A stretch of 64,000 nucleotides of DNA from Candidatus Moraniibacteriota bacterium (GCA_016699425.1 CP064975.1:923957-987956), one strand, 5' to 3'; positions 30,708-60,210 are shown, counted from the first letter of the stretch. A program made the numbers and translations. The notes: generated by a model not told the origin, from the sequence alone.

Positions 30708-31607
30708 ACTAGATCAGCTGATTATGTGGTTACTCTGCAGTATAAATAAAAAACCCAAGAACAATCGGGAAAGTCAGTGGGACGGGCGGACTCCTATCCA
30801 GTTCAGACCCTTCCCCGCCAGCTGGCGGATCAGGACTCACAGGCGGGAATCTCTCGGACTTTCTCAGTTGTTTCCAGAGTGTAGCCGATAATCCCGACCT
30901 TGGCAAGGCGCTAGTCATGAGTGACTCTCCTGAGTGATGCCGCCCGCAACCTGTGGAGAAATGATGCTGCCCCGGGATCGAATCGATCCTCGGGGCATGG
31001 TACTGCTTACTTCGGGTCTCGCCCTGAGGAGGACGAGACCATTGCCGATGTTATTCAGCTTCTTCGCGCAGCGTCGACCTGGCCGGATGCACCTGCATTC
31101 ACGCCCGAATGCGGCGAATCGTGGGTCTGCTCGTGTTGCCGGTGGACAGTCGCGCTTGACATCGCCTTGGCGCCATTCTCGAAGCGCAATGCCGGGGAGC
31201 CCCGAGGGGCCGATTTGATTCTGTGTTTCATACTCGCCTCTCCTTTAGAGACTGATGAAAACGAAATGACGCAGAACCTCTGGAAGATGCACCCGCTGGG
31301 ACACTACATGCTTCACGAGAGGCTTGCGCCGCCAACTGCCTCGATACAACCGAGAACAGCAGGGAAAGGAGAACCATGTTTCTACTCTCTCCGCTGCCCT
31401 CGACTCTTCGCCACGAAAAAGAACTCTGGACACAGTATAAGGAAAATCAGGATAGCGAGTCAAGAAGCTCCCCCAAGAACTCTGATGCTTTCAAGAAACC
31501 TATCTCCGAGAGTATTGCCCTGTCCGATTCTAATCCTCCTCCGAGATCACTCGACATTGAACCCCGTTGGCGCAGTGGGTGGTGTGGTGTCGCCTCAGAA
31601 CTCATCC

Positions 31608-35060: not shown

Positions 35061-37496
35061 TCACAGCTGCCACTTTTCTCGCTCCGCCTGATCCGACAGC
35101 GGATCGTCACCATACTGTTTCCCCTCCTCGAGAGTTTTCAGGATCACCTCGCGCTTCTTGTTCACCTCCGGCCCGACGACACCGCGCTGCTCGAGCGTCT
35201 GCATGACCCGTGCCGCTTTCGGATAGCCGATTTTGAGAAATGTCTGGAGATACGTCGTCGACGCACGCTGCGTTTCCACAACAAGTTTTTTTGCGGCTTG
35301 ATAGATCGGATCATGTTCATCCTCATCCGCTTCACCGACACCGTCGAGGTCGATCGGGTGTTCATCTCCCCCGCCGAAATCCTCACCGATCTCATCCATT
35401 CCTTTTTCAACTTTTTGTCGCTCGAGAAAACGCACCACCTTTTCAACTTCATCCTCCGAAACAAATACGCCCTGAATACGTTGAAGAGTCGATGTCTCGG
35501 CCGAAGAATAGAGCATATCACCATTGCCCAGAAGTTTCTCGGCTCCACCCGTATCGAGGATGGTGCGCGAATCGACATTGGACTTGAGCTTGAAGGAAAT
35601 CCGGGCCGGCATGTTCGCCTTGATGAGACCCGTGACGACATTTACCTCGGGACGCTGGGTTGCAAGCACCAGGTGGATACCCGCTGCCCGACCTTTCTGA
35701 GCGAGGAGGATGATGGATGACTCGACCTCTTTCCCATGGGCGACCATAAGGTCAGCCATCTCATCGATGACGATGACGACCTGTGGCATCGGGGCAAGTT
35801 CCTCTTCTCGGACTTCACTCGTCTCAGTATCGACGACGCGCTTCTTCTCGCCGCGGGCAATTTTTTCCCGGTAGGAGGAAATATCCCGCGACCCGACAGC
35901 CTCGAGCGCTTTGTATCGCCGCTCCATCTCACCGACAGTCCATTTCAGAGCGTTCACGACTTTGTGATTATCAACAATGACATCAGTCTTCAGGTGCGGG
36001 ATCCCCTTGTACAGCGACAACTCGACGCGCTTCGGATCAACGAAGATAAACTTCAGATCCTCGGGTGAATTCTGATAAAGGAGCGAGAGGATGAGGGTAT
36101 TGATACAGACGCTCTTGCCGGACCGGGTCGTCCCCGCGATGAGGAGGTGCGGCATGCGTCCCAGGTCGGCATAGACGTAGCGGCCTGAGACGTCCTGACC
36201 GAGAATGATGGTCAGGTTCGAGTGCCGCGCACGGAATTCTTTCGATTGGAGGAATTCGCGGAGACGGACATTCACCTTCGCCTTGTTCGGCACCTCGATA
36301 CCGATGAGCGACTTCCCAGGGATCGGTGCTTCGATCCGGATATGCTGCGCGGCAAGGGCGAGGGCGAGATCATTGTGGAGCGGCGTGATACTTGAAATCT
36401 TCACACCAACCGCCGGCCGGAAAGTGTACTGGGTCACCGTCGGGCCGACTTGGACTTCGCCCGGCTCCACATCGATATGGAAATGCTTCAGGGTCCGGAT
36501 GATGATGTCTTTATTCTGTTCGATATCGCCGCCACCACCCTTGGCATCGGACGCTGCGAGGAGCTCGAGTGGCGGGAGTTCCCACTGCACTCGTCGTCGC
36601 TTCGGCCGGATAAAAGCCGGGACCAGAACCGTCTCTTCTTCCCCATTCCCATTGGACATTCCCTCAACACCCTTCACAGCTGCTGTGGCTGTCTCTGTTG
36701 ATTCGTTCTCAGCAAAGCGGATATTTTGGATATTGCCGGCTGTTTGTTCGGCAGGTGCATCCACCTTCCCCTCGATCGTCTCCGGTACAGGTTCTGATAT
36801 CTCGGCCGACTTCAATGCCCCTTCGAGCGAAAGCGCTGCGTCGGCTACCGCCGGTGATATAAGCGCCGATTCCTGTCCATCGATCGACACCTCTTCGGTT
36901 GGTTCCTTTCGGAAACGCGCCGTCACATGCTCGAACCAATGCAGGAGCGACACATTGAATGCCGCGATGACTCCCGAGACGAAGAGCGTGAAGAGGACGA
37001 CGAACGCAGCAATCTTTCCCATCGCACCCGAAAGAAGACTCGCGAAGAGATAGCCGATGAAGCCGCCGCCCTCGCGTGCGAGCGCCACGGATCGCAATTC
37101 CTTGGCGGTGTCCCCGAGGAAGAGATGCGACAAACCAAGGAAGGCGAAGAACGCGAAGCCTAATCCGAAATACCGGATGATATCAGAGAGATTCGTCGCA
37201 TGTCGCCGGATAATGAAGTAACCAATGAGCGGTAACAGTGGGATAAGTAACCACTTGCTCCAACCCACGGTCACCCCCACCCACTGATCGACGTTCAGAC
37301 CGAAAGACCCTGCCTGCCCGATGAACGAGAGGAGGAAGAGGATAGCGAAGGCCAGGAGAAACAAAGCAGCGATACCGCGTTTGGCATCACTCCCGAGCGC
37401 TTCTCGCCGTTTCTCATCCGGCTTTTTTTCGGATTGATCTTTCTTTTTCCGCCCCATATATCTAATAGTATAGCAGCCCAATTGCAGTCGAATCAA
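35061..37496 (-). CDS. ftsK: DNA translocase FtsK/SpoIIIE
   Basis: N-terminal 4-5 TM helices, linker, motor domain with Walker A (GTTRSGKSV) and Walker B, and a C-terminal gamma winged-helix domain. Confidence 0.9.
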   Translation of the reverse strand: MIRLQLGCYTIRYMGRKKKDQSEKKPDEKRREALGSDAKRGIAALFLLAFAILFLLSFIGQAGSFGLNVDQWVGVTVGWSKWLLIPLLPLIGYFIIRRHATNLSDIIRYFGLGFAFFAFLGLSHLFLGDTAKELRSVALAREGGGFIGYLFASLLSGAMGKIAAFVVLFTLFVSGVIAAFNVSLLHWFEHVTARFRKEPTEEVSIDGQESALISPAVADAALSLEGALKSAEISEPVPETIEGKVDAPAEQTAGNIQNIRFAENESTETATAAVKGVEGMSNGNGEEETVLVPAFIRPKRRRVQWELPPLELLAASDAKGGGGDIEQNKDIIIRTLKHFHIDVEPGEVQVGPTVTQYTFRPAVGVKISSITPLHNDLALALAAQHIRIEAPIPGKSLIGIEVPNKAKVNVRLREFLQSKEFRARHSNLTIILGQDVSGRYVYADLGRMPHLLIAGTTRSGKSVCINTLILSLLYQNSPEDLKFIFVDPKRVELSLYKGIPHLKTDVIVDNHKVVNALKWTVGEMERRYKALEAVGSRDISSYREKIARGEKKRVVDTETSEVREEELAPMPQVVIVIDEMADLMVAHGKEVESSIILLAQKGRAAGIHLVLATQRPEVNVVTGLIKANMPARISFKLKSNVDSRTILDTGGAEKLLGNGDMLYSSAETSTLQRIQGVFVSEDEVEKVVRFLERQKVEKGMDEIGEDFGGGDEHPIDLDGVGEADEDEHDPIYQAAKKLVVETQRASTTYLQTFLKIGYPKAARVMQTLEQRGVVGPEVNKKREVILKTLEEGKQYGDDPLSDQAEREKWQL

Positions 37497-37548: not shown

Positions 37549-39267
37549 CTACGGCGCTGTCCCACTGACGCACGGGCCGAAGCCATGCACGACCGTGACA
37601 CCATTGACATTCACACAGCTCGGTGAGAAGGCGGTCTGGACAGCAGAGAGGCTGGTATAGGTGGTGCCATGAATCGTCCAGGGGAAAGCGGGGGTACTGT
37701 TCGTGCCTGTACCACTCCCACCACCGCCACTTCCACTCCCCGAACCTGAGCCTGAACCACTCCCACTGCCGGCGGCACAGCTCACCGTGGTGCCACCCAA
37801 GACAGGAGGCTCTACGATTGAGACGCGACAGAGTGAATTCGTGCAACCGGAATCACTTCGGACATTGAGGTAATACAAACTACCGGAAATGACGGGACAA
37901 CCCGTTGGTCCAATGAGAATGCGGGGGTGACCACCTGGGTCAGCAGTCTGGGTACAGGCGGCCGAAGTCGAAAAATCATTGGGTCGAGTGGAAAGTGAGA
38001 TGGTGGTGCGTCCGGTCACGCCATCCCCGCTCCCAGTACCTCGGTGGACGTTTATATACTGCCCCGAAGATGGCATGGTTGTCGCGACATAACGTACCGC
38101 AACGACATGTCCATTGTCGAGAGTCATGCCATTAGGTGAAGCCCCGGGACAATTGAAGGCAAAGTTTATCCCATTTGGACAACCTGGGATAGCTGTATTA
38201 CTACCCGCGCCACCAAGACTGCTTTGATCCACCACCCAAACATTCGTCATGCCACTCGGTCGCCATGTGCCGCTCCCAAATCCCGGATCCCCTGGCGCAC
38301 CAGCCGAGCAGGACGCGGTTGTGCCTGTCCCCACAGTCGGTGCCGGACATGCTGCACCGGCATGCGGGTCACCGTTTTGAATATTGATGCCGACAGGCAG
38401 AATCGCAAACATACATGCTCTACTTCCTTGCCCACACCCACTGAGTGTGAAGTTAACATAGCCGGTTGCTGGAGGAACACAGTGTGTGTCATCAAGGATA
38501 ACCGTACCTCCAACGCCACTCGTACATTCAGGTGTTGCTCCGCCGCCGGGTGTTGAGGATAGGGATATTCTCGCGAGGCCAGCAGACCCGGCACCATCCC
38601 ACCACCGCGTTTGCACATTGCCTGTACCGGTTCGAGTATACGGAATAGAGACGATCCCCCCTACTACTCCCCACACATATACTTTCGATTCGACATCAAA
38701 ATATTGAAAGGGTGCGGTTGGAAAATCATAGACATTTGATGAAACAAGGGCCGTCCCAATCCGACAATTCCCCACCCCAGGGAGATAGACTCCTCCATCC
38801 GTCCCCCCACTCCCTCCACCCCCATCACTCCCACTCCCTCCCGAACACGCCCCCGTGACAAAGTTCTGCCCCTGGAAGGTCATCGTGGCACTCGTCCTTG
38901 GGGTGTAGGAAAGGATCGAAGCATTGAGGGTCACTTCACAGTAGTTGCCCTGAGCATTCGTCAGGCGTTGGGTCCCCGGACTCAAGACCTGGAAGGAGCT
39001 GCCTGTGACACTCCCAATGGGGACGGTGATCTGAGGGGACAGATCAGCTCCCCAGCCGAGGAGACTCATCCGACAGGTGACTCGATAGGTGAGCTGGTTG
39101 TTGGCATCAACACTCACTTCCCAACGGACGGGCAGGTTGTTGCCGGCTTGGGTGAAATCACTCACCCAGCTCTTGCCATACAGGAATTGGAGAGATCCTG
39201 GATCGGGACACATCGCCCCGGTCCCCGGTGTACTCCCAGGATTGGCAGGTGTCGTCACTCCCACCAC
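37549..39267 (-). CDS. Large secreted G/S/T- and Cys-rich protein fragment (carries the C-terminal half of an FN3 domain plus a (GS)n linker)
   Basis: 572 aa. Low-complexity Gly/Thr/Ser with many Cys, and GSGSGSGSGSGSGSGGGGSG near the C-terminus. The frame is open upstream of the GTG start and reads ...LTPGTSYSYHVRAITSAGVSTWSNV, which is the FN3 strands E-G. Confidence 0.6.
   Translation of the reverse strand: MVGVTTPANPGSTPGTGAMCPDPGSLQFLYGKSWVSDFTQAGNNLPVRWEVSVDANNQLTYRVTCRMSLLGWGADLSPQITVPIGSVTGSSFQVLSPGTQRLTNAQGNYCEVTLNASILSYTPRTSATMTFQGQNFVTGACSGGSGSDGGGGSGGTDGGVYLPGVGNCRIGTALVSSNVYDFPTAPFQYFDVESKVYVWGVVGGIVSIPYTRTGTGNVQTRWWDGAGSAGLARISLSSTPGGGATPECTSGVGGTVILDDTHCVPPATGYVNFTLSGCGQGSRACMFAILPVGINIQNGDPHAGAACPAPTVGTGTTASCSAGAPGDPGFGSGTWRPSGMTNVWVVDQSSLGGAGSNTAIPGCPNGINFAFNCPGASPNGMTLDNGHVVAVRYVATTMPSSGQYINVHRGTGSGDGVTGRTTISLSTRPNDFSTSAACTQTADPGGHPRILIGPTGCPVISGSLYYLNVRSDSGCTNSLCRVSIVEPPVLGGTTVSCAAGSGSGSGSGSGSGSGGGGSGTGTNSTPAFPWTIHGTTYTSLSAVQTAFSPSCVNVNGVTVVHGFGPCVSGTAP
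37711..37770 (-). repeat. Coding (GGN-AGY)n microsatellite encoding a (GS)n linker
   Basis: Tandem ccact/cc(a/g)ct hexamer-like repeats on the + strand. It is translated as GSGSGSGSGSGSGSGGGG. Confidence 0.5.
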
Positions 39268-39605
39268 ATTCGACCAGGTTGAGACTCCAGCTGAGGTGAT
39301 CGCACGGACATGGTAGGAATAGCTGGTACCGGGAGTGAGGGTGGTGTCGGTAAAACTCGTGGTATTGGACGTACCCAGGAGGTAAAGACGGTACAGGTCA
39401 GTCCCGTACAGCGTTCCACCTCATACCCGGTCGCTCCAGGCACTGCTCCCCATGAGAGGATTGCACTCGAAGCAGACGGAGCCGTCACACCAAGGCTCGC
39501 TGGCGAAGCGATGGGAGCAACAATGACCGCGCCGGATGTATCTCTGGGCAAGGTGACGAGATCACCTCCACCTCCCAGGCCCTCCACCCGTGCCACTCGC
39601 TCCAC
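39255..39605 (-). CDS. ORF fragment encoding the N-terminal half of an FN3 domain (probably part of a frame-disrupted surface-protein gene)
   Basis: Contains ...AILSWGAVPGATGYEVERCTG, which is FN3 strands A-C. The rest of the domain continues in another frame (the 37549..39267 ORF). The start codon is GTG. Confidence 0.4.
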   Translation of the reverse strand: MERVARVEGLGGGGDLVTLPRDTSGAVIVAPIASPASLGVTAPSASSAILSWGAVPGATGYEVERCTGLTCTVFTSWVRPIPRVLPTPPSLPVPAIPTMSVRSPQLESQPGRMWWE

Positions 39606-40104
39606 CTCCGCCCGTACTAGGGGTGGGGGTGGTTGTAGCCACCGCTCCCGTCGAGAGGGATGTGGTACTACAGCTCACCGTATCCCAACCGGTACGGATG
39701 AGACCGGTTGTAGTATTGATGATGGGAAGCGTCAAGATGAAGTTGACCGTGACCCAGGCTAAGAGGACGACACCGAGTCCAATCAAAGCCGCGAACATGC
39801 CTCCTTTGGCAAAGGTCATGCGACCTTCATTCCCCCCTGAGGTGAGGTAGATGATGGCCATCGCGACCAAGACGGCGACCGCGACTGCGGCCATGATGTT
39901 TCGGAGGAAGACGACGATGCGACTGATCCCCACCAAGAGATGGCAGAGGGTGCAACGTTCTGTCCCTCCTCCGGGGATATCGGGGTCTGGGGTGGAGAGG
40001 CCGCAGGGAATGAGGCCTGCGTGGAGAGACGTGGTGGGGACGAGGGAGAGGGTCGTGGTAGCGAGAATGAAGAGAGCGAGGAAGATGAGAAGGGAGCGGG
40101 GCAT
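39562..40104 (-). CDS. TrbC/VirB2-like pilin ('CPR pilin' family), possibly the N-terminal part of a longer frame-disrupted gene
   Basis: Signal peptide (MPRSLLIFLALFILATTTLSL), a conserved Cys pair region (PCGLS...CTLCHL) and two TM helices (VAVAVLVAMAIIYL / ALIGLGVVLLAWVTV). This is the layout of T4SS-type pilins common in Patescibacteria. A G/T/S tail runs into the next ORF in a different frame. Confidence 0.65.
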   Translation of the reverse strand: MPRSLLIFLALFILATTTLSLVPTTSLHAGLIPCGLSTPDPDIPGGGTERCTLCHLLVGISRIVVFLRNIMAAVAVAVLVAMAIIYLTSGGNEGRMTFAKGGMFAALIGLGVVLLAWVTVNFILTLPIINTTTGLIRTGWDTVSCSTTSLSTGAVATTTPTPSTGGGGASGTGGGPGRWR

Positions 40105-40278
40105 TTTTTTGAGAGGTGGGTTTTTGGGTAGTGTAGCACTCTTTTGGACATTCGGTCAGGGGGTCATCAAGGTCTCAAGCGGGTCACCATGGGCCTAAGC
40201 TAGCTTTTCCTGGGTAACAAAATCACCCTGGCATGCACCAGGGTGATTTTTGTCGTCAGACTCTCCTCGCAGGAAAAC

Positions 40279-43200
40279 CTAGCGTTTCTCCTGACCTTCG
40301 CGGTAGCCCGTCCCAGCCGGGATGAGTCGTCCGATGATGACGTTCTCCTTCAGGCCACGGAGTCGGTCCTCGCGACCCTGAACAGCTGCATTGATGAGGA
40401 CACGGGCGGTTTCCATGAAGGACGCCGCCGAGAGGAAAGACTCGGTCGAGAGCGCAACCTTCGTGATACCGAGCACCATGACTTCGCCGGTCGCTTTCGT
40501 TCCACCCGTTTTTTCAATCTCTTCGTTGGCTTCGTGGAATTGATCCTTCTCAACGATATCGCCTGGGAGGAGCATCGTGTCGCCCGGATCAGCCACTCGC
40601 ATACGTGAGAGCATCTGACGGATGATGACTTCGATATGCTTGTCATTGATACCTTCACCCTGCGCTGCATAAATCTCTTCGATCTCACGGATGATGTAGC
40701 GATGGACGGCTTCCTCACCCATGACTTCATGAAGCTTCTTCAGATCGACATGTCCTTCAGAGAGGATGGAGCCCTTGCCGATGAGGTCGCCAACTTTCAC
40801 TTTCACCGCAGCATTGGCTGGAGCTGAATACTCGTGTTCGACTTTCGCTTCATCAAGGACGGTAACTTTCACCACTTTCACTTCTTTCTCAATGGATGTC
40901 ACTTGACCATCGACCTCCGAGAGAATCGCTTCAGTCTTTGGTGTCCGAGCCTCAAAGATCTCTTCCACCCGTGGGAGTCCCTGGGTGATGTCGGACCCAG
41001 CCACTCCACCGACGTGGAAGGTACGCATAGTCAGCTGTGTCCCCGGCTCACCAATCGCCTGAGCCGCGACAACACCGACAGAAACACCAAGCTCGACCAA
41101 GGCATTGCGACCCAAATCGATACCGTAGCATTTCTGACAGACACCGCGCCGAGACTTACAGGTGACAAGTGAACGGACTTTGACCTTTGGAATCGCCTTG
41201 TTCGTCTCAATTTCCTTGCCCTTGGCACGAGAGATGAGCTCATTCTTCTTGGCGATAATGTCGCCCGAGGCCGGATCCTTGATCGTCTCAGCGGCGTAAC
41301 GGCCTTCGATACGACTCGCATAGGACATGCCGATCTTGTCGGAATCCTCGCGATAGAGATAGGCACCCGTCGTATCGGCACAGTCGTTCTCACGGACGAT
41401 GATATCCTGAGACACATCGACCAGACGACGGGTGAGATAGCCGGCAGTCGCCGTCCGGAGTGCGGTGTCGGCCATACCCTTACGTGCACCGTGGGTCGAG
41501 ATGAAGTACTCCAACACATTGAAACCATCCTTGAAGTTCGACTTCACTGGAAGCTCGATGGTTTCCCCAGTTGGGCCAGCCATGAGCCCCTTCATACCGG
41601 TCATCTGCACGACAACGGATTCCGAACCGCGCGCCTTGGAATAGACCATGGCATAGACTGGGCCTTCCTTGTCGAGCGTCGCGCGAACGGCGTCCGTGAT
41701 CTGATTCTTCGTCTCATTCCAAACTTCGATGACTCGACCCTTACGTTCTTCATTGGTGAGGAGCCCCATATTGAACTGATCCTTCACCAGTTTCACTTTT
41801 TCTTCAGCCAGACGGATCAGCTCATTCTTTTCTTTCGGCACCTTCAGATCATCCATGCCCCAGCTAAACCCTGACTTCGAAACCGACTTGAAGGCGAGAT
41901 CCTTCAAACGGTCAGCGAAGAGCGCTGCCTCATCCTGACCGAGCGTCTCGAGAATCCGCGAGATGAGCACTTTCAGGTCTTTCTTCGTCATTTCTTCGTT
42001 CACGAAGCGGAGTTCGGGTGGCAAGATATCATTCAGGAGAATCCGACCGACCGATGTCTCGATGATCGCGCCCGCCCAAGAGAGACGGACCAGGGCATTG
42101 ATCGCGATCGCCCCAGTGTCATAGGCAAGGATGGCTTCATCCATCGTCCCAAACGCTTTCCCTTCACCCTTGGCCGACACTTTGGTATGCGTCAGGTAAT
42201 AGGCACCGAGCACCATATCGAGAGTGGCCGACACGATCGGTTCACCAGAGGCTGGTTTCAAGAGGTTCTTGGAAGAAAGCATGATCGTCGCACACTCACC
42301 GCGCGCTTCGGCGGTCAGCGGCACATGGACCGCCATCTGATCACCATCGAAGTCAGCATTGAAGGCAGAGCACACCATCGGGTGAAGACGAATCGCCTTC
42401 CCTTCGATGAGGACCGGCTGGAACGCCTGGATCGAGAGACGATGGAGCGTCGGGGCGCGGTTCAGGAGCACATAGTGCTGCGGGATGATTTCGTCGAGGA
42501 TTTCATAGGCTTCTTCGCTCTCGGCATCCACCATCCGACCCGCGGTGCGGACATTGTGAGCATGTTCCTTCTCGATGAGTTTGTTGATGATGAACGGCTT
42601 GAAGAGTTCGAGCGCCATCTTCTTCGGGAGACCACACTGGTAGAGTTTGAGTTTCGGTCCGACGACGATGACCGAGCGGCCAGAGTAGTCAACCCGCTTA
42701 CCCAACAGGTTCTGACGAAAACGTCCCTGCTTACCCTTGAGGGCATCAGCGAGCGAGCGGAGTGGTCGGCGCTGGCCGGTCGATGCAGCAGTCGAAGCCT
42801 GTCCACGACGGGCCGAGTTGTCGAAGAGCGCATCGACAGCTTCCTGGAGCATGCGCTTCTCATTGCGCGTGATGACTTCCGGCGCACCGATCGCCAAGAG
42901 CTTCTTCAGCCGATTGTTGCGATTGATGATGCGACGGTACAGGTCATTCAGGTCAGATGTCGCGAACCGGCCGCCATCGAGCGCGACCATCGGACGGAGA
43001 TCTGGCGGGATAACCGGAATCGCGGTTGGCAACATCCACTCCAGACGCAGGTTGGCCTTCTGGAAGCCTTGGTAGACTTTCAATCGCTGGAGAAGTTTCT
43101 TCTGATCGACGGACTCATCCTCAGAAAGTTCTTTCTTCAGGATGTCCACCATGTCCGGGATATCCATCTTCTCGAGAATCTTGCGGATGGCCTCGGCACC

Positions 43201-43866
43201 AATACCGGCGGTGAAGACCTGACCGAAGCGACTCGAGAGATTGAAGTACTCCACTTCCGACAAGATCTGATTTGGACGCAAGTTCTTGATATCGTCCTTC
43301 GTGGTCCGATACTGCTCCTTCAGGTCTTCAAGTGCTTTCTCAAGTTTCGTTTCGTCTTTCTCGGCGGCCCGGATCTCTTTGGTCTTGGCCTTGTACTCCT
43401 TCTCGAGTGCTTCAAGCGTCTGCTCTTTCAGGGCTTCCTTCACCTCCATGATGATGTACGAGGAGAAATAGATGACGCGTTCCAAATCCTGCGGCGAGAT
43501 CCCGAGAGCGAGGCCGATCTTGGACGGCACACCACGGAGGAACCAGATGTGAGAAACCGGAGTCGCCAGTTTGATGTGGCCCATGCGTTCACGGCGAACG
43601 ATGGCGCGTGTCACTTCGACGCCGCACTTGTCGCAGACGATTCCCTGGTAGCGGATCCGCTTGTACTTGCCGCAGTAGCACTCCCAGTCTTTCGACGGGC
43701 CGAAGATCTTTTCACAGAAAAGTCCATCCGGTTCATACCGCTGGGTTCGATAGTTGATGGTCTCAGGCTTGGTGATTTCGCCTTTGGACCATTCGAGGAT
43801 GTCAGCGGGCGAGGCGAGCGTCAGTTTGACTGAGTCGAAATCGCTAACTTTGGTGATGTTTTCCAT
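40279..43866 (-). CDS. rpoC: DNA-directed RNA polymerase subunit beta'
   Basis: 1195 aa. Zn-finger CxxC...CxxC near the N-terminus, the NADFDGD catalytic motif, and the trigger loop. Confidence 0.97.
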   Translation of the reverse strand: MENITKVSDFDSVKLTLASPADILEWSKGEITKPETINYRTQRYEPDGLFCEKIFGPSKDWECYCGKYKRIRYQGIVCDKCGVEVTRAIVRRERMGHIKLATPVSHIWFLRGVPSKIGLALGISPQDLERVIYFSSYIIMEVKEALKEQTLEALEKEYKAKTKEIRAAEKDETKLEKALEDLKEQYRTTKDDIKNLRPNQILSEVEYFNLSSRFGQVFTAGIGAEAIRKILEKMDIPDMVDILKKELSEDESVDQKKLLQRLKVYQGFQKANLRLEWMLPTAIPVIPPDLRPMVALDGGRFATSDLNDLYRRIINRNNRLKKLLAIGAPEVITRNEKRMLQEAVDALFDNSARRGQASTAASTGQRRPLRSLADALKGKQGRFRQNLLGKRVDYSGRSVIVVGPKLKLYQCGLPKKMALELFKPFIINKLIEKEHAHNVRTAGRMVDAESEEAYEILDEIIPQHYVLLNRAPTLHRLSIQAFQPVLIEGKAIRLHPMVCSAFNADFDGDQMAVHVPLTAEARGECATIMLSSKNLLKPASGEPIVSATLDMVLGAYYLTHTKVSAKGEGKAFGTMDEAILAYDTGAIAINALVRLSWAGAIIETSVGRILLNDILPPELRFVNEEMTKKDLKVLISRILETLGQDEAALFADRLKDLAFKSVSKSGFSWGMDDLKVPKEKNELIRLAEEKVKLVKDQFNMGLLTNEERKGRVIEVWNETKNQITDAVRATLDKEGPVYAMVYSKARGSESVVVQMTGMKGLMAGPTGETIELPVKSNFKDGFNVLEYFISTHGARKGMADTALRTATAGYLTRRLVDVSQDIIVRENDCADTTGAYLYREDSDKIGMSYASRIEGRYAAETIKDPASGDIIAKKNELISRAKGKEIETNKAIPKVKVRSLVTCKSRRGVCQKCYGIDLGRNALVELGVSVGVVAAQAIGEPGTQLTMRTFHVGGVAGSDITQGLPRVEEIFEARTPKTEAILSEVDGQVTSIEKEVKVVKVTVLDEAKVEHEYSAPANAAVKVKVGDLIGKGSILSEGHVDLKKLHEVMGEEAVHRYIIREIEEIYAAQGEGINDKHIEVIIRQMLSRMRVADPGDTMLLPGDIVEKDQFHEANEEIEKTGGTKATGEVMVLGITKVALSTESFLSAASFMETARVLINAAVQGREDRLRGLKENVIIGRLIPAGTGYREGQEKR

Positions 43867-47681: not shown

Positions 47682-48002
47682 CTACTTTTTGTCTGTTTTT
47701 CCTTCACTCAGCGTCACAGTGTCGCGAAGTTTCCCTTCGCTCACTGCCCAAGTATACACTCCTGCCACCGTCTCAGCAATTTTCACCGAGGTGAAGTTGT
47801 CAGAAACGGTTGTTTCAAGCCGAAAATCGCTCACATCCCCAGGATGCAGGTTGTTTCCCGAGAGCAGCGCCTCGATCCCCTCAAACAGCTGCCGCCCCAA
47901 GTCCCGGCTCTCGGCCCAGCTTTTTTCCGCGACAACCTCCCCATCCTTCATAAGAACGAGCCGGGCATCAGTCTTGGTGAGAGTGAGAAGGAAAGAGTTC
48001 AT
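47682..48002 (-). CDS. Truncated TsaB/YeaZ-like (inactive Kae1 paralogue) N-terminal domain protein
   Basis: 106 aa. Pattern LLTLTKTDARLVLMKDGEVV...SDNFTSVKIAETVAGV resembles the N-terminal half of TsaB (GPGSFTGxRIG region). Confidence 0.45.
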   Translation of the reverse strand: MNSFLLTLTKTDARLVLMKDGEVVAEKSWAESRDLGRQLFEGIEALLSGNNLHPGDVSDFRLETTVSDNFTSVKIAETVAGVYTWAVSEGKLRDTVTLSEGKTDKK

Positions 48003-48251
48003 AGTATATAAAAAAGTATTGGCCCTGTGTCAGTTGTACTGTATCACGGAGCCAGGGTGAATCAAGCTGTGGCACGCTTAGACTTATAAGCACACCGATT
48101 GACCTTTCGGCTTTGTCATTAAACTTATGCTTTCTGTTAAATTTTTCGCTTTCTTACTGCTACAATGGGCCTGGATGCGTTCACCGTCAATATGTTAAGA
48201 ATATTGCAACAACAATCCGAGGGGGGGAACATCATCAAACAAGACTGATTT

Positions 48252-49970
48252 ATGAAGTTGCACAGCTTTGTAAAGAATTTTTCCTATCAACAATTTACTT
48301 ACCTGTTGGTAGGGCTCACTGTTCTTGTTTACCTAAACGGATTATTCGGCGAATTTCTTTCAGACGATCGGAAGCAAATCCTCGATAATCCGATCGTGCA
48401 TTCCTTTTCAAACTTCTTTACTTTTTTCCAAGGAAGTACCTTTGATGCTGGCGACGGGACTTTGGTCGGGCTGTTCTATCGTCCCTTGCAGACCATCTAC
48501 TTTTCTCTTCTTTGGAGCATTTTTGGAGCCCAGCCCGTCTTTTTCCATTTTTTTCAGCTCATCATTCATATCATCAATGGTCTTCTTGTTTTTTTTATTT
48601 TTAAGCACTGCTTTAGTAAAGTACTCGCTTTTTCCCTCAGCCTCATATTCATGATTCATCCAATGAATGTAGAGGCTGTTGCATACATATCGTCTTCAGG
48701 GGTCATACTGTCCCTTCTATTCGGCCTACTTGCATTCAGGATTGTTATCAGAAACAATATCAGGCCAAGGGATTACGCCCTACTTTCGAGTTTCTTGTTA
48801 CTCTCAGTCTTATCTCATGAAATTGGCTCCCTATTCATCCCCATTATCCTGTCATTTAAATTCTTATACGATAAGAAAAACGTATTCTCATGCGCTGGTA
48901 GTTTAGTATTTGTGGTGATTGTCTACGCCATCCTACGGTTTGGTGTTGGGCATGTCTATTTTCCTGAGGTTCATCAGTCGCCCATCATGACAATGTCTTT
49001 GATTGAAAGACTCCTGCACATTCCGAAAATTCTCATAACCTACCTCGGCACCTTCTTATTCCCGCTTCACCTGAGTTTTTCACAAGTCTGGACGATTCCA
49101 GAGATTGGATTCAGCAATTTTTACATACCATTGATGATTTTGCTCATTTTACTGGCTGGAAGCATTATCTTTACGCACCATCTCTACAAATCAAAAAGTG
49201 GCGAGTTTATCCTCTTCATATTTTTTGCGACTTGGTTACTCATAGGACTAATTCTTTTTATCCAAATAATTCCCGCTGAGCAAACCGTATCAGAGAGATG
49301 GTTCTATTTCCCGATGATAGGATTTCTCGGATTATTGGGGGTACTAGCGCAATACTTTATCGAAAAAAGGAATGGGGGTGTCATCAATTACCTGGCAATC
49401 ACCGTCTCTATCATTATTGTTCTCCTATCAGTCAGGACTATCGTGAGAAATAATGATTGGAGTGATGAGTTCACTTTAGCCAAACATGATATAAAGCACG
49501 ATCCAAATAACTATATACTTGCCAATGCGGTGGGCGCAGAATATCTCAGACGTGGCGACGCAAATAACGCAATCGGCTTCTTAGAGAAGTCTTCATCCCA
49601 CTTTACCGACGCCCAGACACTTAGCAATCTCGGTGCTGCGTACCTCATGCTGGGGAATTATTCAGAATCAAAAGAAGCATTGCAGAAATCCATAGAGATA
49701 AATGAGCTCAGCGACACTGTTACAAATATGGCATGGTTACTGGCAACGAGGGGTGATCCTGTAGAAGCGGAGGCTTTCATACGAAACAAACTCGACAAAT
49801 ATCCGCAGCTTTGGAAGCTTTGGATGGATTTGGCAATAGCAGAATATAAACTAAGTAAAAGAGATGAGGCATTACAGGCAGCTAAGCAAGCCTATTCATT
49901 GGCTCAAAACGGAGAAACGGCCTACCTCTATAACCAGATCAGTAAAAATCTCCCCTTGAAAATAGATTAG
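48252..49970 (+). CDS. GT39/PMT_2-like polytopic membrane glycosyltransferase with C-terminal TPR repeats
   Basis: 572 aa. About 11 TM helices in the N-terminal two thirds, then TPR-like helical repeats (...LGAAYLMLGNYSESKEALQKSIE...). The gene is markedly AT-rich (about 40% GC) compared with its surroundings. Confidence 0.7.
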   Translation: MKLHSFVKNFSYQQFTYLLVGLTVLVYLNGLFGEFLSDDRKQILDNPIVHSFSNFFTFFQGSTFDAGDGTLVGLFYRPLQTIYFSLLWSIFGAQPVFFHFFQLIIHIINGLLVFFIFKHCFSKVLAFSLSLIFMIHPMNVEAVAYISSSGVILSLLFGLLAFRIVIRNNIRPRDYALLSSFLLLSVLSHEIGSLFIPIILSFKFLYDKKNVFSCAGSLVFVVIVYAILRFGVGHVYFPEVHQSPIMTMSLIERLLHIPKILITYLGTFLFPLHLSFSQVWTIPEIGFSNFYIPLMILLILLAGSIIFTHHLYKSKSGEFILFIFFATWLLIGLILFIQIIPAEQTVSERWFYFPMIGFLGLLGVLAQYFIEKRNGGVINYLAITVSIIIVLLSVRTIVRNNDWSDEFTLAKHDIKHDPNNYILANAVGAEYLRRGDANNAIGFLEKSSSHFTDAQTLSNLGAAYLMLGNYSESKEALQKSIEINELSDTVTNMAWLLATRGDPVEAEAFIRNKLDKYPQLWKLWMDLAIAEYKLSKRDEALQAAKQAYSLAQNGETAYLYNQISKNLPLKID

Positions 49971-50014
49971 CCCATTTCATTTGCTCTTTTAAAAACCCGC
50001 AGCAGTATAAACAA

Positions 50015-53670: not shown

Positions 53671-53853
53671 GAGAGCGGAGCGAACAAGGAATGGAGCACG
53701 CCAACTGCTTGGCGTGCGTGGGGGATGAGAATGACGGAGCACTGCCGAACAAGCATGAAATTTTATCGCATCAAACATTCAGAATTGAGGATAACGCGGG
53801 TGTTTTGAACGAACTATCCCGGATGGAATCACTACTGCAGCCAGCGTGATTTA

Positions 53854-55740
53854 GTGGTAAAATACAATTACAAAAGAAAACAAATGCTTTCTGCGAATCA
53901 TCATCAGGGCTTGCTTGTCTTTGAAAGAGGTGGCCGAGTGTATCTTTTTTGGCGTTCTGCCGAGCGCTCGATGCCGGGCATCTTCTCGGTCGAGAGTCCG
54001 GATGGCAGAAAATTCAAGAAAACACTTTCTTTCGTCGCTCTGTACCGTCCAGACGGCACCAAGACCGTGCTGGGTTCCTCGCCCGAACTCCGCGCCGGCT
54101 CGCTCGGCACCAAGACGCTGCTCAGCTTCCTCGATGAACGGAAGAACACACTCTTCGCCGCGATTGAAAAGGATGGTGCATGGAAGATCATTGCTGCCAC
54201 CGATAGCTTCCGTGCCCCGAGTGTCGTACTTGCTCCGAAGTCAACCCTGACCGCAAAAAGTCCGGCGCTCGCCTTCTTCAGCCGAGATGGCCGGATCATC
54301 TCGCTCGCCCGATCAACTGGCGACCTAACCCGCTGGAAGGACCTCGGTGATGTCCTCACTGTTCGGCCGAACAACTTTGATGCAGCGAATCTCTCTCCCC
54401 TGCATGCCGAAATCACTGTGCAAGGCACCCTCCTCGTCTACTCGGCTCAGGACCGCTCCGGCCAGATCGTCATCGGCGCCGCACTTTTCGATCGCAAGCA
54501 TCCGACGACCACATTGTGGCGCAGTGATCATGCTTTGTGGACCGCACCGATCGATACGCCACCAGACGCTGCGATCATCGGCGGAGGGAACATCGGGAAA
54601 TACTTCTCGATCTATCTCCAGTCAGCGGAACACGGCATTGAATCATACCCGATCGCTCGCTACTGGGAAACGTACCGGCAGCGCGTTCGACCGGCACTCC
54701 CCCTGCCGCCACGCATACCGGGTATACGCATCCCGATCGAGCGTTTCGCCCAAAATCCGATCATCGAACCAGTCGTCAGACATTCCTGGGAGGCCTTCGC
54801 GACCTTCAATCCGGCTGCCATCTGCCTCGACGGACGCATCCATCTCCTCTATCGGGCACAAGGCTATGACGGACAGTCCGTTCTCGGGTATGCCTCGAGC
54901 GGAGACGGTGTCCACATTGATGAACGACACGCCAACCCCGCCTTCGTCCCGTCTCGTGCTGCCGAGTCAGCGGCTCGGACACACGCACTGTCCTTTGTCT
55001 CCGGCGGTGGGACGGGCGGATGCGAAGATCCGCGACTCGTCGAAATCGATGGGGTGGTCTATCTCATCTATGTCGCTTTCGATGGCGCCAATCCCCCCGG
55101 TGTCGCGCTCACACATATTGCCAAAGCCGATTTCCTTGCGAAGCGCTGGGAGTGGGCCCGACCGAAGCTCATCTCGCTGCCGGGAGAAATTCAGAAAAAC
55201 TGGGTTCTCTTCCCAGAGCAAATCAATGGAAAATACGCGATCATCCACGGTCTGAGCCCTGAAATCCGGATTGAATATGTTGACAGCCTGAAAAGACTTG
55301 GGGATGGCCACTATATCCGAAGTCTCAAGTCGCATGGTGGCCGCGGCTATATCGAGCCGGCTCGGCTGCGTGCCTGGGACAATATCGTCCGTGGGGTCGG
55401 CGCACCACCCATCAAGACCGCGTATGGCTGGCTCGTGTTCTACCATGGTATGGATCTGCGGGACCCGGGTAAATACAAAGTCGGCGTCATGCTCCTCGAC
55501 CTCGAACACCCCGAGAAAATTCTCCGACGTGCCCTAGAACCGGTACTCGAGCCGGAAACCTTCTACGAAAACAGCGGCCACAAGCCTGGTGTCATCTATG
55601 TCTGCGGTGCCGTCATTAAAGACAAGAAGCTCCTCGTTTATTACGGAGCAGCTGATCGCAGTACGGGGGTCGCGATGGCCGATCTCGACTCCTTCCTCGG
55701 TGATCTCTTGAAAAATACGCCCCCACCCTCACGAAGATGA
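53854..55740 (+). CDS. Glycoside hydrolase family 130 (DUF377) protein with extra N-terminal domain
   Basis: 628 aa. The C-terminal about 320 aa show GH130 hallmarks (FNPAAI..., GCEDPRLVEIDGVVYLIY, GWLVFYHGMD...KYKVGVMLLD, LVYYGAADR). The N-terminal about 300 aa are beta-rich and may be a degenerate GH130 or other beta-propeller domain. Confidence 0.75.
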   Translation: MVKYNYKRKQMLSANHHQGLLVFERGGRVYLFWRSAERSMPGIFSVESPDGRKFKKTLSFVALYRPDGTKTVLGSSPELRAGSLGTKTLLSFLDERKNTLFAAIEKDGAWKIIAATDSFRAPSVVLAPKSTLTAKSPALAFFSRDGRIISLARSTGDLTRWKDLGDVLTVRPNNFDAANLSPLHAEITVQGTLLVYSAQDRSGQIVIGAALFDRKHPTTTLWRSDHALWTAPIDTPPDAAIIGGGNIGKYFSIYLQSAEHGIESYPIARYWETYRQRVRPALPLPPRIPGIRIPIERFAQNPIIEPVVRHSWEAFATFNPAAICLDGRIHLLYRAQGYDGQSVLGYASSGDGVHIDERHANPAFVPSRAAESAARTHALSFVSGGGTGGCEDPRLVEIDGVVYLIYVAFDGANPPGVALTHIAKADFLAKRWEWARPKLISLPGEIQKNWVLFPEQINGKYAIIHGLSPEIRIEYVDSLKRLGDGHYIRSLKSHGGRGYIEPARLRAWDNIVRGVGAPPIKTAYGWLVFYHGMDLRDPGKYKVGVMLLDLEHPEKILRRALEPVLEPETFYENSGHKPGVIYVCGAVIKDKKLLVYYGAADRSTGVAMADLDSFLGDLLKNTPPPSRR

Positions 55741-55772
55741 ACGTAAAAAAACTATCCTCCTAATCTCTCCTT

Positions 55773-57695
55773 ATGCCATTCTTCAAACGCTCGTTCGAAA
55801 ACCCAATCCTCGTACCACAGAATGACCTCCCTTGGGAGTCTGATGGGGCCTTCAATGGATCGGCCATTCGGGAGAAAGGCAAGACCCGTCTTCTTTATCG
55901 AGCGCAGTCTCTCCCGCTCCTCCACGACGATGGGCCGTGGCTCTCCCTTTCATCCATTGGCCACGTCGAGAGTACTGATGGGATACATTTCAAGAATCAC
56001 CGCCAGGTCATCAAGCCAGAACTGCACTGGGAACGCTATGGCTGCGAAGATCCCCGAGTCACAAAATGCGATGGCAAATATTATGTGTTCTATACAGCAC
56101 TCTCGGAATTCCCCTTCCGCGCCGAGGGCATCTCGGTCGGTCTCGCCATCACCAAGAACTTCAAAACGTTCGAGAAACATCACATCACACCCTTCAATGC
56201 GAAAGCGATGACGCTTTTCCCGGAGCGAATCGGTGGCAAACTCTGGGCGATACTCTCAGCCAATACCGATCAGCCACCTGCGACCATCGCGCTCGCTTCC
56301 TTTGACGATGAGACCGACCTCTGGGATCAGGCGCGTTGGCAGGCCTGGTATCAGGAATTAGACCAGCACGGACTCGAACTCCAGCGGACCGATAATGATC
56401 ACGTCGAGATCGGTGCGGCGCCGATCAAAACCAAGGAAGGCTGGCTGCTCCTCTATTCCTATATCCAGCAGTACCATACCGCCTCCCCCATTTTCACGGT
56501 CGAAGCCGTGCTCCTCGATCTCGAGAATCCTCGGAAAATCATCGCCCGAACTGATGTGCCACTCCTCGTCCCAGAGGAAGAGTATGAACACTACGGCAAG
56601 GTGAAGGATATCGTCTTCCCGACTGGAGTTGTGCTACGCGGTGACTCACTGTTTCTCTACTACGGTGCGGCTGACACAACCACCTGCGTCGCCATCGGGA
56701 GCTTGAAGACAATACTGAAGGAGATGCGATCCGACCCCAAACGGCGACCGCAATTTGAGCGCTATGGGCACAATCCCGTGCTCGCACCCGTCGCGAAACA
56801 TGACTGGGAAGCCAAAGCAGTCTTCAACCCCGCTGCTATCGACGTCCCAGGGAAAACAGTCATCCTCTACCGTGCGATGTCCGCCGATGACACCTCTGTC
56901 CTCGGGTACGCGGAAAGCAAGAATGGTTTCCGTATCAACCGCCGCCTCCCCGATCCGGTCTATATCCCCCGCGCGCCGTTTGAAACAAAGAACGCGCCGG
57001 GTAATTCCGGTTGCGAAGATCCCCGCCTTACGCGTTTCAACGATACCTACTACATGCTCTACACCGCGGTTGATGCCGCTACCCCGCCGCGCGTCGCGCT
57101 TACGACTATCCCAGTCGATGATTTCCTCGCCGAACGTTTCGAACGTTTCTCCGATCCAGTCCTCATCTCGCCGCCGGGCATCGATGACAAAGACGCCTGC
57201 CTCTTTCCGGAGAAAATCGGTGGCAAGTATGTCGTCCTGCATCGCATCCAGCCCTCGATCGACATCAATTTTCTCGATGACCTTGCCTTCGACGGCACCT
57301 CGCGATTTCTGATGCATCGTCCGTTCATCTTCCCACGGCGCGGCATGTGGGATAGCCGAAAGATCGGCATCAACACCGCCCCGATACGAACTAAAGCTGG
57401 CTGGCTCATCCTCTACCACGGTGTCTCTGAGTACGATGGTCACTACCGTGTCGGGGCGATTCTCCTAGATCTCGAAAATCCCGAACGCATCATCGGCCGC
57501 AGCCGGCACCCGCTCTTCAGCCCCGAGGAAGACTATGAACGCGTGGGGGTTGTCCCCAATGTCGTCTTCCCTTGCGGTGCGGTCGTCCGCGGGACCAAGC
57601 TCATCACCTACTACGGCGGGGCTGACCGTGTCGTCGGTGTTGCATCCATCGCGCTGCCCAAACTCTTGAAGTCCCTCCTCGCTGATGGCGTGTAG
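55773..57695 (+). CDS. Tandem-GH130 (two DUF377 glycosidase/phosphorylase domains) protein
   Basis: 640 aa. Two homologous halves each carry FENPIL/GHNPVL, (Y)GCEDPR, GWL(L/I)LY...Y and (Y)YGAAD/YYGGAD, the mannoside-phosphorylase-type GH130 motifs. Confidence 0.82.
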   Translation: MPFFKRSFENPILVPQNDLPWESDGAFNGSAIREKGKTRLLYRAQSLPLLHDDGPWLSLSSIGHVESTDGIHFKNHRQVIKPELHWERYGCEDPRVTKCDGKYYVFYTALSEFPFRAEGISVGLAITKNFKTFEKHHITPFNAKAMTLFPERIGGKLWAILSANTDQPPATIALASFDDETDLWDQARWQAWYQELDQHGLELQRTDNDHVEIGAAPIKTKEGWLLLYSYIQQYHTASPIFTVEAVLLDLENPRKIIARTDVPLLVPEEEYEHYGKVKDIVFPTGVVLRGDSLFLYYGAADTTTCVAIGSLKTILKEMRSDPKRRPQFERYGHNPVLAPVAKHDWEAKAVFNPAAIDVPGKTVILYRAMSADDTSVLGYAESKNGFRINRRLPDPVYIPRAPFETKNAPGNSGCEDPRLTRFNDTYYMLYTAVDAATPPRVALTTIPVDDFLAERFERFSDPVLISPPGIDDKDACLFPEKIGGKYVVLHRIQPSIDINFLDDLAFDGTSRFLMHRPFIFPRRGMWDSRKIGINTAPIRTKAGWLILYHGVSEYDGHYRVGAILLDLENPERIIGRSRHPLFSPEEDYERVGVVPNVVFPCGAVVRGTKLITYYGGADRVVGVASIALPKLLKSLLADGV

Positions 57696-57867: not shown

Positions 57868-58251
57868 TCACTTCTTCCGCAATGGTTGGGCATGCCGCCA
57901 CTGTACGACGCATGGCTCCGGTTCGTCCAAGTGGTGACGCACTGTCACACCTCGACCATCGGCCGACAGACAAAGCTGAGTCCCTCTGACTACCTGAAAA
58001 CCGTGGTCATCATCCGGTCCCTCGTGGCACGTGATTGCGCCCTCCAGATGGATGTAGCAGTCACCGCCACCCATCTCACCAACGTATGGTCCAGAGACAT
58101 CAGCGGACTCACCGGGCTGGATGGTAACGTCCTCGGCATAACCTTGTTCAACGTGGTAACCGAAAGCGATGATGGGATACGATGTCTTGTTAATGACCTT
58201 CATGCTTCTACCTCCCTCGATGTAGGTTGGATAATCTGTCCTCGAGCTCAA
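57868..58251 (-). CDS. Hypothetical small protein
   Basis: Track ORF of 127 aa. A likely start is the internal ATG (MKVINKTSYPII) at about 58203. No recognisable motif. Confidence 0.4.
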   Translation of the reverse strand: MSSRTDYPTYIEGGRSMKVINKTSYPIIAFGYHVEQGYAEDVTIQPGESADVSGPYVGEMGGGDCYIHLEGAITCHEGPDDDHGFQVVRGTQLCLSADGRGVTVRHHLDEPEPCVVQWRHAQPLRKK

Positions 58252-58510
58252 GGACTTATCAGACTACTTACTTTAGCAACTTTAGTCAATACATGATGTT
58301 TGAATCCCATCCGTGATAACAATAAATAAGGCTGTTACAGCCCTTCTTTGAGAGTATTCCCTCTAGTGAACAAACTTAGGACTTTGGATTGGAGAAGTAT
58401 TGGGAAGATGGTGGGAGAGATGGGGACAGTTTTAGCGTAAAAAAGGGAGTGGGTATTGCCGTGTTAGGCTCACCACTCCTTTGTTCGTCTCGGCCGCTGC
58501 CACGCTTGCT

Positions 58511-58648
58511 TTAGGCAAAAATGCAGTTAGCGACCCAGATGAGGGCGCCTAGAACGCCCGATATGAACGCCATCAGTCCGACGTTCTTTTCCTGCCACGC
58601 TTGGCGCAGAGAAATCTTTGGGGTACACAGATACGCGTTCGGTATCAT
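58511..58648 (-). CDS. Candidate small membrane peptide (45 aa)
   Basis: Found by manual translation. GAGAGGAG Shine-Dalgarno sits 6 nt upstream of the ATG. A single C-terminal TM helix (GLMAFISGVLGALIWVANCIFA). Too short for the ORF track. Confidence 0.3.
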   Translation of the reverse strand: MIPNAYLCTPKISLRQAWQEKNVGLMAFISGVLGALIWVANCIFA

Positions 58649-58806
58649 GCTCAACTCCTCTCGTAAAAAATGATTGCTTTACCCTAACCAATTCACCTCC
58701 TACTCATGTCCAAACTGGACTGAACATACTATCAGAGTTTTACATAAAGTCAACAGAGGGCAACAAAAAAGGTTCCACTTTAGAGCATTACCCATCTCGA
58801 AATAAT

Positions 58807-59511: not shown

Positions 59512-59528
59512 ATAGATGAAGGTACTGA

Positions 59529-60167: not shown

Positions 60168-60180
60168 ATTTTAAGAGAGT

Positions 60181-60210
60181 AAAGAATAAATAAAACCGCC
60201 TGACAGGCGG
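60181..60210 (-). terminator. Hairpin plus T-run immediately upstream of the yhhQ start (terminator or attenuator)
   Basis: Minus-strand reading shows CCGCCTGTCAGGCGG followed by TTTTATTTATTCTTT. It ends about 15 nt before the yhhQ ATG. Confidence 0.45.

Follow-up and report, generated by a model that had tools for sequence, protein, structure and literature searches.

Three overlapping open reading frames (ORFs) on the minus strand of a Candidatus Moraniibacteriota genome, at positions 37549-40104 of a 64-kb window of CP064975 (the window being the whole stretch of DNA that was analysed, along which all coordinates are numbered), are on the evidence of sequence comparison the pieces of one gene of ~2.56 kb, which encodes a single pilin-anchored surface protein of ~852 residues. 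The best overall explanation, to which we give a probability of about three in four, is that a single gene has been broken by two small consensus errors in the assembly, and that its product displays an adhesin-like ectodomain at the cell surface. The source is a metagenome-assembled genome (MAG) from wastewater, EsbW_18-Q3-R4-48_MAXAC.278_cln, a single circular sequence of 1,217,328 bp (Singleton et al. 2021, Supplementary Data 3), which is classified within Patescibacteria, Paceibacteria_A, Moranbacterales, UBA1568.

Reading frames and gene structure

The ORFs overlap by 44 nt (ORF1/ORF2) and 13 nt (ORF2/ORF3) and occupy frames 2, 0 and 2; an earlier note on this DNA had described the same overlaps in differing frames. 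ORF1 (39562..40104, minus strand, 180 aa) is an exact match to QQR78420.1 (IPJ68_05070) and comprises a Sec-type signal peptide, a PCG...CTLCH cysteine motif, two hydrophobic helices, Cys145 and a T/P/G-rich linker, ending at a TGA that is produced by a frameshift. ORF2 (39255..39605, minus strand, 116 aa) belongs to a frame that is open from 39674, although frame analysis indicates that only ~39379..39579 is genuinely coding (linker and FN3 strands A-C), the remainder being out-of-frame read-through; across its junction the orthologue reads ...CTVFTSLGTSNTT.... ORF3 (37549..39267, minus strand, 572 aa) begins with GTG in a frame open upstream to 39420 and contains FN3 strands E-G and the entire cysteine-rich ectodomain, with a C-terminus (...GFGPCVSGTAP) that is typical of the family and conserved in P0001, P0002, P0025 and P0026. 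ORF2 and ORF3 carry no signal peptide, though they code for disulfide-rich extracellular modules.

Profile searches of the frame-corrected pieces placed both expected domains above their thresholds. ORF1 matches the Pfam type IV secretion system (T4SS) pilin family PF18895 (T4SS_pilin) at 32.4 bits (cut-off 26.6, E 1e-7) over profile positions 9-71 of 71, which supports the pilin-type assignment made previously, and the relative L009 scores 32.2 bits. The single FN3 domain (39262..39506, minus strand) is interrupted by the second of two frameshift sites. In the uncorrected sequence the open frame 5' of ORF3 matches only the C-terminal half of PF00041 (positions 45-81) at 26.5 bits; once the ORF2 frame is spliced on, the match rises to 38.6 bits (cut-off 25, E 1.3e-9) and extends to positions 2-81 of 84, so that one domain is indeed split by the frame change.

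Architecture of the corrected protein

From the N-terminus, the protein consists of a Sec signal peptide (MPRSLLIFLALFILATTTLSLVPTTSLHA), a cysteine-bearing segment, two transmembrane helices (~66-87 and 103-126) connected by the loop SGGNEGRMTFAKGG, a fourth cysteine, a T/P/G linker, FN3, module A, a Gly/Ser linker, modules B and C, a (GS)n linker and module D. The cysteines C34, C51, C54 and C145 are invariant across divergent relatives in the family alignment. An AlphaFold2 (AF2) model of the pilin portion places the helices at 47-88 and 93-125, with a predicted local distance difference test score (pLDDT) of 75-81 in the helices and 60.7 over the whole model. The composition (16% G, 12.6% T, 10.7% S), the 26 cysteines and the two Gly/Ser linkers bear out the description of a G/S/T- and Cys-rich sequence with a (GS)n linker. 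Each module has an even number of cysteines, and the AF2 model of the ectodomain has a mean pLDDT of 71.7, reaching at least 90 in modules A and C.

FN3 is the sole family match in the ectodomain, modules A-D having no match in Pfam or NCBIfam. Module A (38857..39210, minus strand) is a beta-sandwich of ~120 aa with four cysteines, including C192 of the adjoining linker; it forms the last part of the region that is constant among paralogues, and homologous modules occur in P0003, P0004, P0025, P0055 and L009. The first Gly/Ser linker (GGSGSDGGGGSGGTDGG; 38791..38856, minus strand) is the cassette junction, at which the near-identity of paralogues and orthologues ends. Beyond it, module B (38383..38790, minus strand; pLDDT ~80) is a variable beta-sandwich cassette with six cysteines, including C358 of the adjoining linker, and has relatives in P0001, P0005, P0038 and L009. 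Module C (37780..38313, minus strand), a beta-sandwich of ~180 aa with eight cysteines including C548 of the adjoining linker, carries the signature GDPGxGxGTWxPxG...VVDQS...PGC...SLSxxPxDF...YYLN...C..C and is widespread and uncharacterised, being found also in hypothetical proteins of Deltaproteobacteria and Oligoflexia. The second linker (37696..37779, minus strand), consisting of (GS)n and then GGGGSGTGTNS, is modelled at pLDDT < 50 and leads to module D (37552..37695, minus strand), a C-terminal unit of ~45 aa with two cysteines and the signature FPWTIxGxxYxSLxAxxxAFxPxCVNVNGxxVxxGFGPC, which is conserved in P0001, P0002, P0025, P0026, P0029 and L009 and tandemly repeated in P0034 and P0076.

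Module C is present in P0034 and P0028, proteins from Oligoflexia and Deltaproteobacteria MAGs, the former also carrying module D in three tandem copies. The carriers of modules C and D outside Patescibacteria include a class of predatory bacteria, and both modules are uncharacterised extracellular domains to which no Pfam family corresponds.

Single open reading frames in relatives

The architecture is established by comparison with orthologous loci. Pilin, FN3 and cysteine-rich ectodomain lie in one ORF in every relative examined (P0001, P0002, P0003-5, P0025, P0205, P0226 and L009), so that of the two arrangements previously considered, the one large pilin-anchored gene is upheld, and a pilin gene followed by a separate adhesin, or three independent small genes, is contradicted. 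P0001, from a MAG of another Moraniibacteriota species, is 75% identical over 92% of the corrected 852-aa query and contains PF18895 and PF00041 in the same ORF; on its contig the next genes are ftsK, a RodZ-like gene and recA, in the order seen in the window, and the order rpoB-rpoC-pilin is kept in L011. More distant relatives are likewise single ORFs: P0002 (854 aa, identical in four independent contigs), P0025 (737 aa), P0003-5 and L009, which is complete at 668 aa counted from its Met. P0205, the product of the contig L089, runs from Met1 through pilin and FN3 into module A in one frame. In short-read MAGs of related populations contigs break within this gene (P0001, P0081-84, L007, L011), as would be expected of a repeat, and a scan of species-representative contigs with P0001 returned only the MAG of P0001 itself.

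Position and nature of the frameshifts

At site 1 (39580..39582, minus strand) the GG of intact alleles appears as GGG in the window, a gain of one base: GGA GGC CTG GGA, coding G G L G, has become GGAGG[G]CCTGGG, and ORF1 terminates six codons on. The intact protein reads GTGGGLGGGGDL at this point in P0001, P0081, P0084, P0205, P0206, P0226 and P0227. At site 2 (39378..39379, minus strand) one base is missing between the two positions; the window reads ACCTC^CTGGG, and the related locus L001 and L089 both read ACTTCTCTGGG, coding T S L G. The window also differs from L001 by a T-to-C change three bases away, and the site lies outside any homopolymer of three or more bases. The statement that the frame changes fall in GGG/CCC runs thus stands for site 1 but fails for site 2.

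Over ~39700-38900 the window is 99-100% identical to L001, with one extra G and one missing base as the sole gaps, whereas the flanking genes and the pilin helices are only ~85% identical and identity falls again at the first Gly/Ser linker. L089, a short-read SPAdes contig of an ENA assembly with 97.5% nucleotide identity over 1,010 aligned nt, shows precisely these two gaps against the window and none besides. A further MAG, whose population is again near-identical (~97% at nucleotide level), supplied P0081 and P0084, both of which are in frame across site 1 and end before site 2. Beyond the two indels there is no decay: a frame of 623 codons is open, all 26 cysteines are kept and the C-terminus is conserved.

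The end of contig L089 (1063..1102, the C-terminus of P0205) translates to SLIHISEPTRPY, which we take to be the peptide signature of Illumina Nextera adapter read-through; on that assumption this contig end would be contaminated. Separately, a methylation motif was considered at the indels, both of which abut CCTGG in the window, only 1.6-2% of positions being that close to CCWGG. We have not relied on it, since intact relatives read CTCTGG at site 2 and the motif there may stem from the error itself.

Paralogues in the same genome

The genome contains at least three further copies besides that of the window, giving a four-member family in 1.2 Mb. P0226 (QQR78749.1, 746 aa) is intact at both sites. 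P0227 (IPJ68_01865) is right at site 1 and has at site 2 the same -1 change as the window, reading ...CTVFTSWVRPIP... / ...CTVFTSWVRPIPRVL...; its continuation, P0023 (IPJ68_01870), begins at the same GTG as ORF3 of the window. P0206 (IPJ68_03950) is also right at site 1 and has a +1 change at site 2, reading ...CTVFTSPGYVQY... / ...CTVFTSPGYVQYHEF.... The states of site 2 among the four copies are hence -1, -1, +1 and intact. The paralogues are 98-100% identical over residues 1-445, that is over pilin, linker, FN3 and module A, and are unrelated from the first Gly/Ser linker on, and both indels of the window copy fall inside this shared 5' block of ~1.3 kb. Such identity patterns suggest that C-terminal cassettes have been swapped at the Gly/Ser linker.

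The neighbouring ftsK gene (35156..36556) repeats the pattern of the constant block of the pilin-adhesin gene, two of its segments (36556-36356 and 35656-35156) being 95-100% identical to L001 at nucleotide level where the genome is otherwise ~85% identical. This suggests either frequent recombination between Danish Moranbacterales lineages or mosaicism of the MAG.

Predicted topology and function

For topology and function we infer the following from the sequence and its models. The loop between the two helices, which contains Arg and Lys, would lie on the cytoplasmic side, and the N-terminal segment and everything past helix 2 would be extracellular and stapled together through the four invariant cysteines; with both of these segments so placed, a disulfide-rich ectodomain of ~670 residues would be displayed on the cell surface. 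An extracellular position of both termini fits the occurrence of payloads on either side of the hairpin in other family members, some of them acting on peptidoglycan: extracytoplasmic SLT lytic transglycosylase and CARDB domains follow it, and in P0013 a large domain precedes it. Were the hairpin to polymerise through a Patescibacterial T4SS, the ectodomain would be displayed on a pilus. The closest matches to the ectodomain models are beta-sandwich binding domains (collagen-binding/PPC, C-CPE and CBM), and the ectodomain most plausibly binds a host or surface ligand, which would be consistent with a role in host attachment or adhesion.

Neither an LPxTG sorting signal nor a polymer adhesin domain was found, the C-terminus being ...HGFGPCVSGTAP and fn3 the only Pfam or NCBIfam match; nor was there a class III signal peptide or N-methyl motif, the N-terminus being of the Sec type without a Pfam N_methyl match. 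A Foldseek search of the low-confidence pilin model (pLDDT 60.7) against the PDB gave a best E of 3.2, to generic helical hairpins, which discriminate poorly, and no pilin emerged when PDB sequences were searched by profile. The label 'VirB2-like' is used here because of the Pfam family and of the literature on Patescibacterial pilins (PMC12102498, PMC12857230).

Origin of the frameshifts

The genome was assembled with CANU from Nanopore reads and polished by Racon with Nanopore reads, two rounds of medaka and one Illumina round of Racon, at coverages of 9.8x (Illumina) and 18.4x (Nanopore); the strain heterogeneity of the MAG (StrHet) is 100 and its polymorphic rate 0.0043. We infer that the two frameshifts are most probably assembly artefacts, being residual errors of the Nanopore consensus. 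An artefact is judged the likelier because the breaks are confined to a multi-copy block and strike the same site in three of the four copies in both directions, because the frameshifts are not present in short-read assemblies of near-identical populations, and because coverage was low in an assembly built first from Nanopore data. Short reads derived from the shared block may align best to the error-free paralogue and so leave the erroneous copies uncorrected. Elsewhere in the window no comparable break was seen: among ~40 other genes spread over the 64 kb, none had a Pfam domain split across adjacent frames, and profiles were spanned end to end for the fully listed genes (rpoB, rpoC, ftsK, gyrB, ftsZ, ftsA, hisS, recA and others). 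The other overlapping ORF pairs are complete, separate genes (TIM/FBA, DAGK/YbeY/YqeY and LytR/Pth). Of the two possibilities offered for the frame changes, authentic pseudogene or indel errors, the latter is accordingly favoured, given the Nanopore-first assembly, the four-copy block and the -1/-1/+1/intact pattern of site 2.

A recent and authentic pseudogene is unlikely. The window copy and two paralogues would then be truly frameshifted, decaying duplicates, the intact QQR78749.1 would supply the function, and ORF1 may still yield a plain pilin of 180 aa, about the length of ordinary family pilins (135-170 aa). The frames do stand as given in a polished and deposited genome, the fragments are separate GenBank proteins, and strain heterogeneity is high; but the gene shows no decay apart from its two indels, and three paralogues altered at the very same site in opposite directions are not what independent random decay would be expected to leave. 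Furthermore, short-read assemblies of near-identical populations keep the reading frame, P0205/L089 across both sites and P0081 and P0084 across site 1, and both lesions sit in a multi-copy block of a Nanopore-first assembly with only 10x Illumina coverage. It is considerably less probable still that the paralogues form a phase-variable adhesin family, in which ±1 indels at a hot spot in the FN3-coding region switch them so that one of four cassettes is expressed. Surface adhesins of host-dependent bacteria are classic targets of phase variation, and the genome does hold four paralogues with a constant 5' region and differing 3' cassettes, exactly one being in frame and the others -1, -1 and +1 at site 2. 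Sequencing error gives a simpler account of that same pattern, however, and the window copy would require two separate events. There is moreover no tract long enough for slipped-strand mispairing, site 1 being GG/GGG and site 2 CTTCTCT, and no repeat tract at the switching site, the longest runs within 39250-39700 (C5, C4, G4 and T4) all lying away from both sites. Extended to function, the idea would make the four genes a switchable repertoire of pilin-anchored adhesins in an episymbiont, whose indels are real on/off switches that expose one cassette at a time, whose constant VirB2-like anchor with FN3 and module A forms a stalk in, or at the tip of, a T4SS pilus, and whose cassettes set host specificity and are exchanged at the Gly/Ser linker, both inside a species and from one species to another; taken together, these propositions are very improbable.

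That the ORFs are separate genes, whether a stand-alone pilin with an independent adhesin or three small genes, has very little to recommend it. ORF1 has its own start, stop and complete pilin domain, but ORF2 and ORF3 would be left to export disulfide-rich extracellular domains with no signal peptide, one FN3 domain would be divided between their frames, and the intact orthologues and paralogues are all single ORFs. Programmed ribosomal frameshifting, +1 and then -1, through the two sites is scarcely credible: the two shifts do compensate each other, yet intact alleles have no shifts at all, no slippery heptamer or stimulatory structure was noticed, and two opposite programmed shifts in one gene would be without known precedent.

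Several points nevertheless weigh against a single gene broken by consensus errors and encoding a displayed adhesin. The case for an artefact is circumstantial. That three paralogues are changed at the same position could also come from a true mutational hot spot, or from gene conversion of a genuine lesion, and with such high strain heterogeneity a real null allele, in a minority or a majority of cells, is possible. Site 2 is not a homopolymer and carries a substitution besides its deletion relative to L001 and L089. As to display, searches gave the pilin no significant similarity to VirB2 or TraA pilins of solved structure, which leaves polymerisation into a pilus unsupported; no T4SS genes occur among the ~40 scanned window genes, which are housekeeping genes, or beside the homologues in L002 and L009; and modules A-D have no known ligand.

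If the indels are consensus errors, IPJ68_05070 and its neighbours in CP064975 should become one gene, and two other paralogues need like repair. The locus would then illustrate clearly how, in Nanopore-first MAGs, sequence present in several copies evades correction by short reads, giving rise to false 'pseudogenes' or small ORFs.

Family members and their genomic setting

A metagenome scan with the pilin alignment recovered 80 loci, among which 58 complete ORFs have the CxxCH motif. Plain pilins account for 23 of these and intermediate forms (141-230 aa after the motif) for seven; the remaining 28 have C-terminal extensions of ~130 aa or more, with over 400 aa after the motif in four. Among the domains found in these extensions are SLT lytic transglycosylase (three loci), CARDB, FN3 with modules A/B, cysteine-rich repeats and an HExxH-containing domain. 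The suggestion that a pilin joined to an FN3/Cys-rich ectodomain is a singular oddity was therefore overstated, about half of the sampled metagenomic CTLCH-type pilins having C-terminal extensions. The VirB2-like hairpin commonly serves as N-terminal anchor for larger extracellular proteins with FN3/beta-sandwich, SLT, CARDB or metalloprotease-like domains.

Individual cases are L035, L069, L078, L045 and L049, metagenome loci in which the T4SS_pilin hairpin is fused to SLT lytic transglycosylase (a VirB2-VirB1-like fusion, in three loci), to CARDB or, in a protein of 957 aa, to cysteine-rich repeats with a HELGH metalloprotease-like motif.

The position of the gene directly downstream of rpoC (40279..43866) had also been thought telling. 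Family members elsewhere are found among other housekeeping genes, with YchF/GroEL in L002 and ATP synthase/LeuRS in L009, and in L090 (1..7774; JBATAY010000091.1, from a MAG ~97% identical over the gene) a paralogue is divergent from a type IV pilus cluster comprising PilM, two T2SSE ATPases, T2SSF and an N_methyl pilin; no particular weight attaches to the neighbour, then. A PilB-like ATPase lies ~5 kb downstream of the homologue in L002. Just after the rpoC stop is a terminator-like hairpin with a U-tract (40216..40254, minus strand; RNA fold -26.3 kcal/mol, z = -4.3 against shuffles), which was overlooked by a simple terminator scan; its place between rpoC and the pilin-adhesin gene suggests that the latter is its own transcription unit. 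The window has no second pilin gene, the family hidden Markov model having matched ORF1 alone among all six-frame ORFs.

Comparison with known systems

The constant-region and variable-cassette surface protein family of Neisseria, pilE/pilS, resembles the present one in having several copies with a near-identical 5' block, differing 3' cassettes and a junction at a low-complexity linker. In contrast to that system, all copies here look like full genes, neither silent cassettes nor a recombination machinery came to light, and exchange is deduced from identity patterns.

VirB2-like pilins occur across Patescibacteria; Ca. Southlakia epibionticum and TM7x possess arrays of them, and in one cultured species such an array is essential (PMC12102498, PMC12857230). 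Like these, the present protein matches PF18895 above threshold, has a signal peptide and two hydrophobic helices with a short basic loop, and comes from a Patescibacterial genome with several sequence-variable paralogues. Those pilins are small, whereas here an ectodomain of ~670 residues follows the hairpin; the gene lies between rpoC and ftsK, neither beside virB4 nor in a tandem array; the paralogues combine a constant region with swapped C-terminal cassettes rather than diverging throughout; and there is no detectable link in fold or sequence to solved VirB2 or TraA pilins.

Modular type IV pilins, such as PilB and PilC of Streptococcus sanguinis, consist of a pilin module onto which an adhesive one is grafted (PMC8179133, PMC9934059). 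The order of N-terminal pilin or anchor and C-terminal adhesion module is shared, and by either arrangement a monoderm would gain a functionalised filament or surface, but the pilin superfamily is another: here both a class III (prepilin peptidase) signal and an N-methyl motif are lacking, the signal peptide is an ordinary Sec one, the anchor is a two-helix hairpin, and incorporation into a filament is putative. PrgB, or aggregation substance, a conjugation adhesin that Gram-positive T4SSs anchor in the cell wall, is similar in that the present protein is a candidate surface adhesin tied by an anchor domain to a lineage with a monoderm-type T4SS (PMC12857230); it differs from PrgB in its lack of an LPxTG signal and polymer adhesin domain, in its N-terminal membrane hairpin anchor, and in modules A-D, to which no Pfam family corresponds.

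Recent work on Patescibacteria detected no adhesins and left the role of the pilus unsaid (PMC12102498, PMC12857230). A pilin-anchored adhesin could fill the 'no adhesin detected' gap (PMC12102498), and the four cassette-swapped genes are testable candidates for factors of host attachment or cell-envelope remodelling in an episymbiotic lifestyle. We found no description of a VirB2-like pilin-anchored, cassette-swapping family in the searchable literature. This family of adhesin-like proteins, with four copies in a 1.2-Mb genome, is real and moderately novel, and is of moderate interest for the biology of host interaction in Patescibacteria.

Other features of the window

A second frameshift was suspected in comEC, where a Competence ORF (7904..9412) and an MBL ORF (7078..7992) that overlap in different frames match the two halves of TIGR00361; the 282-aa MBL-fold ORF starts at ATG 7926 (minus strand), and the pair resembles a frameshift in a GGGG run. 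The candidate was rejected: the MBL part is a separate protein of ~282 aa in more than 100 independent clusters of Moraniibacteriota/Patescibacteria, so that the split is natural and therefore uninformative on assembly errors.

A 344-aa hypothetical gene of L001 (8411..9445), downstream of an SLT_2 gene, has no nucleotide-level counterpart at 30800..31560 of the window and marks a variable spot between otherwise syntenic genomes. Two islands of low GC content, 48001..50000 (41%) and 58001..61000 (45-49%), stand out against ~56% elsewhere in the window; the first holds a 573-aa TPR-repeat protein (48249..49967, plus strand) and is possibly acquired DNA. Finally, two tandem paralogues of 643 aa, each with GH130 (beta-1,4-mannooligosaccharide phosphorylase) domains, occupy 53809..57692 on the plus strand, an unusual investment for a 1.2-Mb genome.

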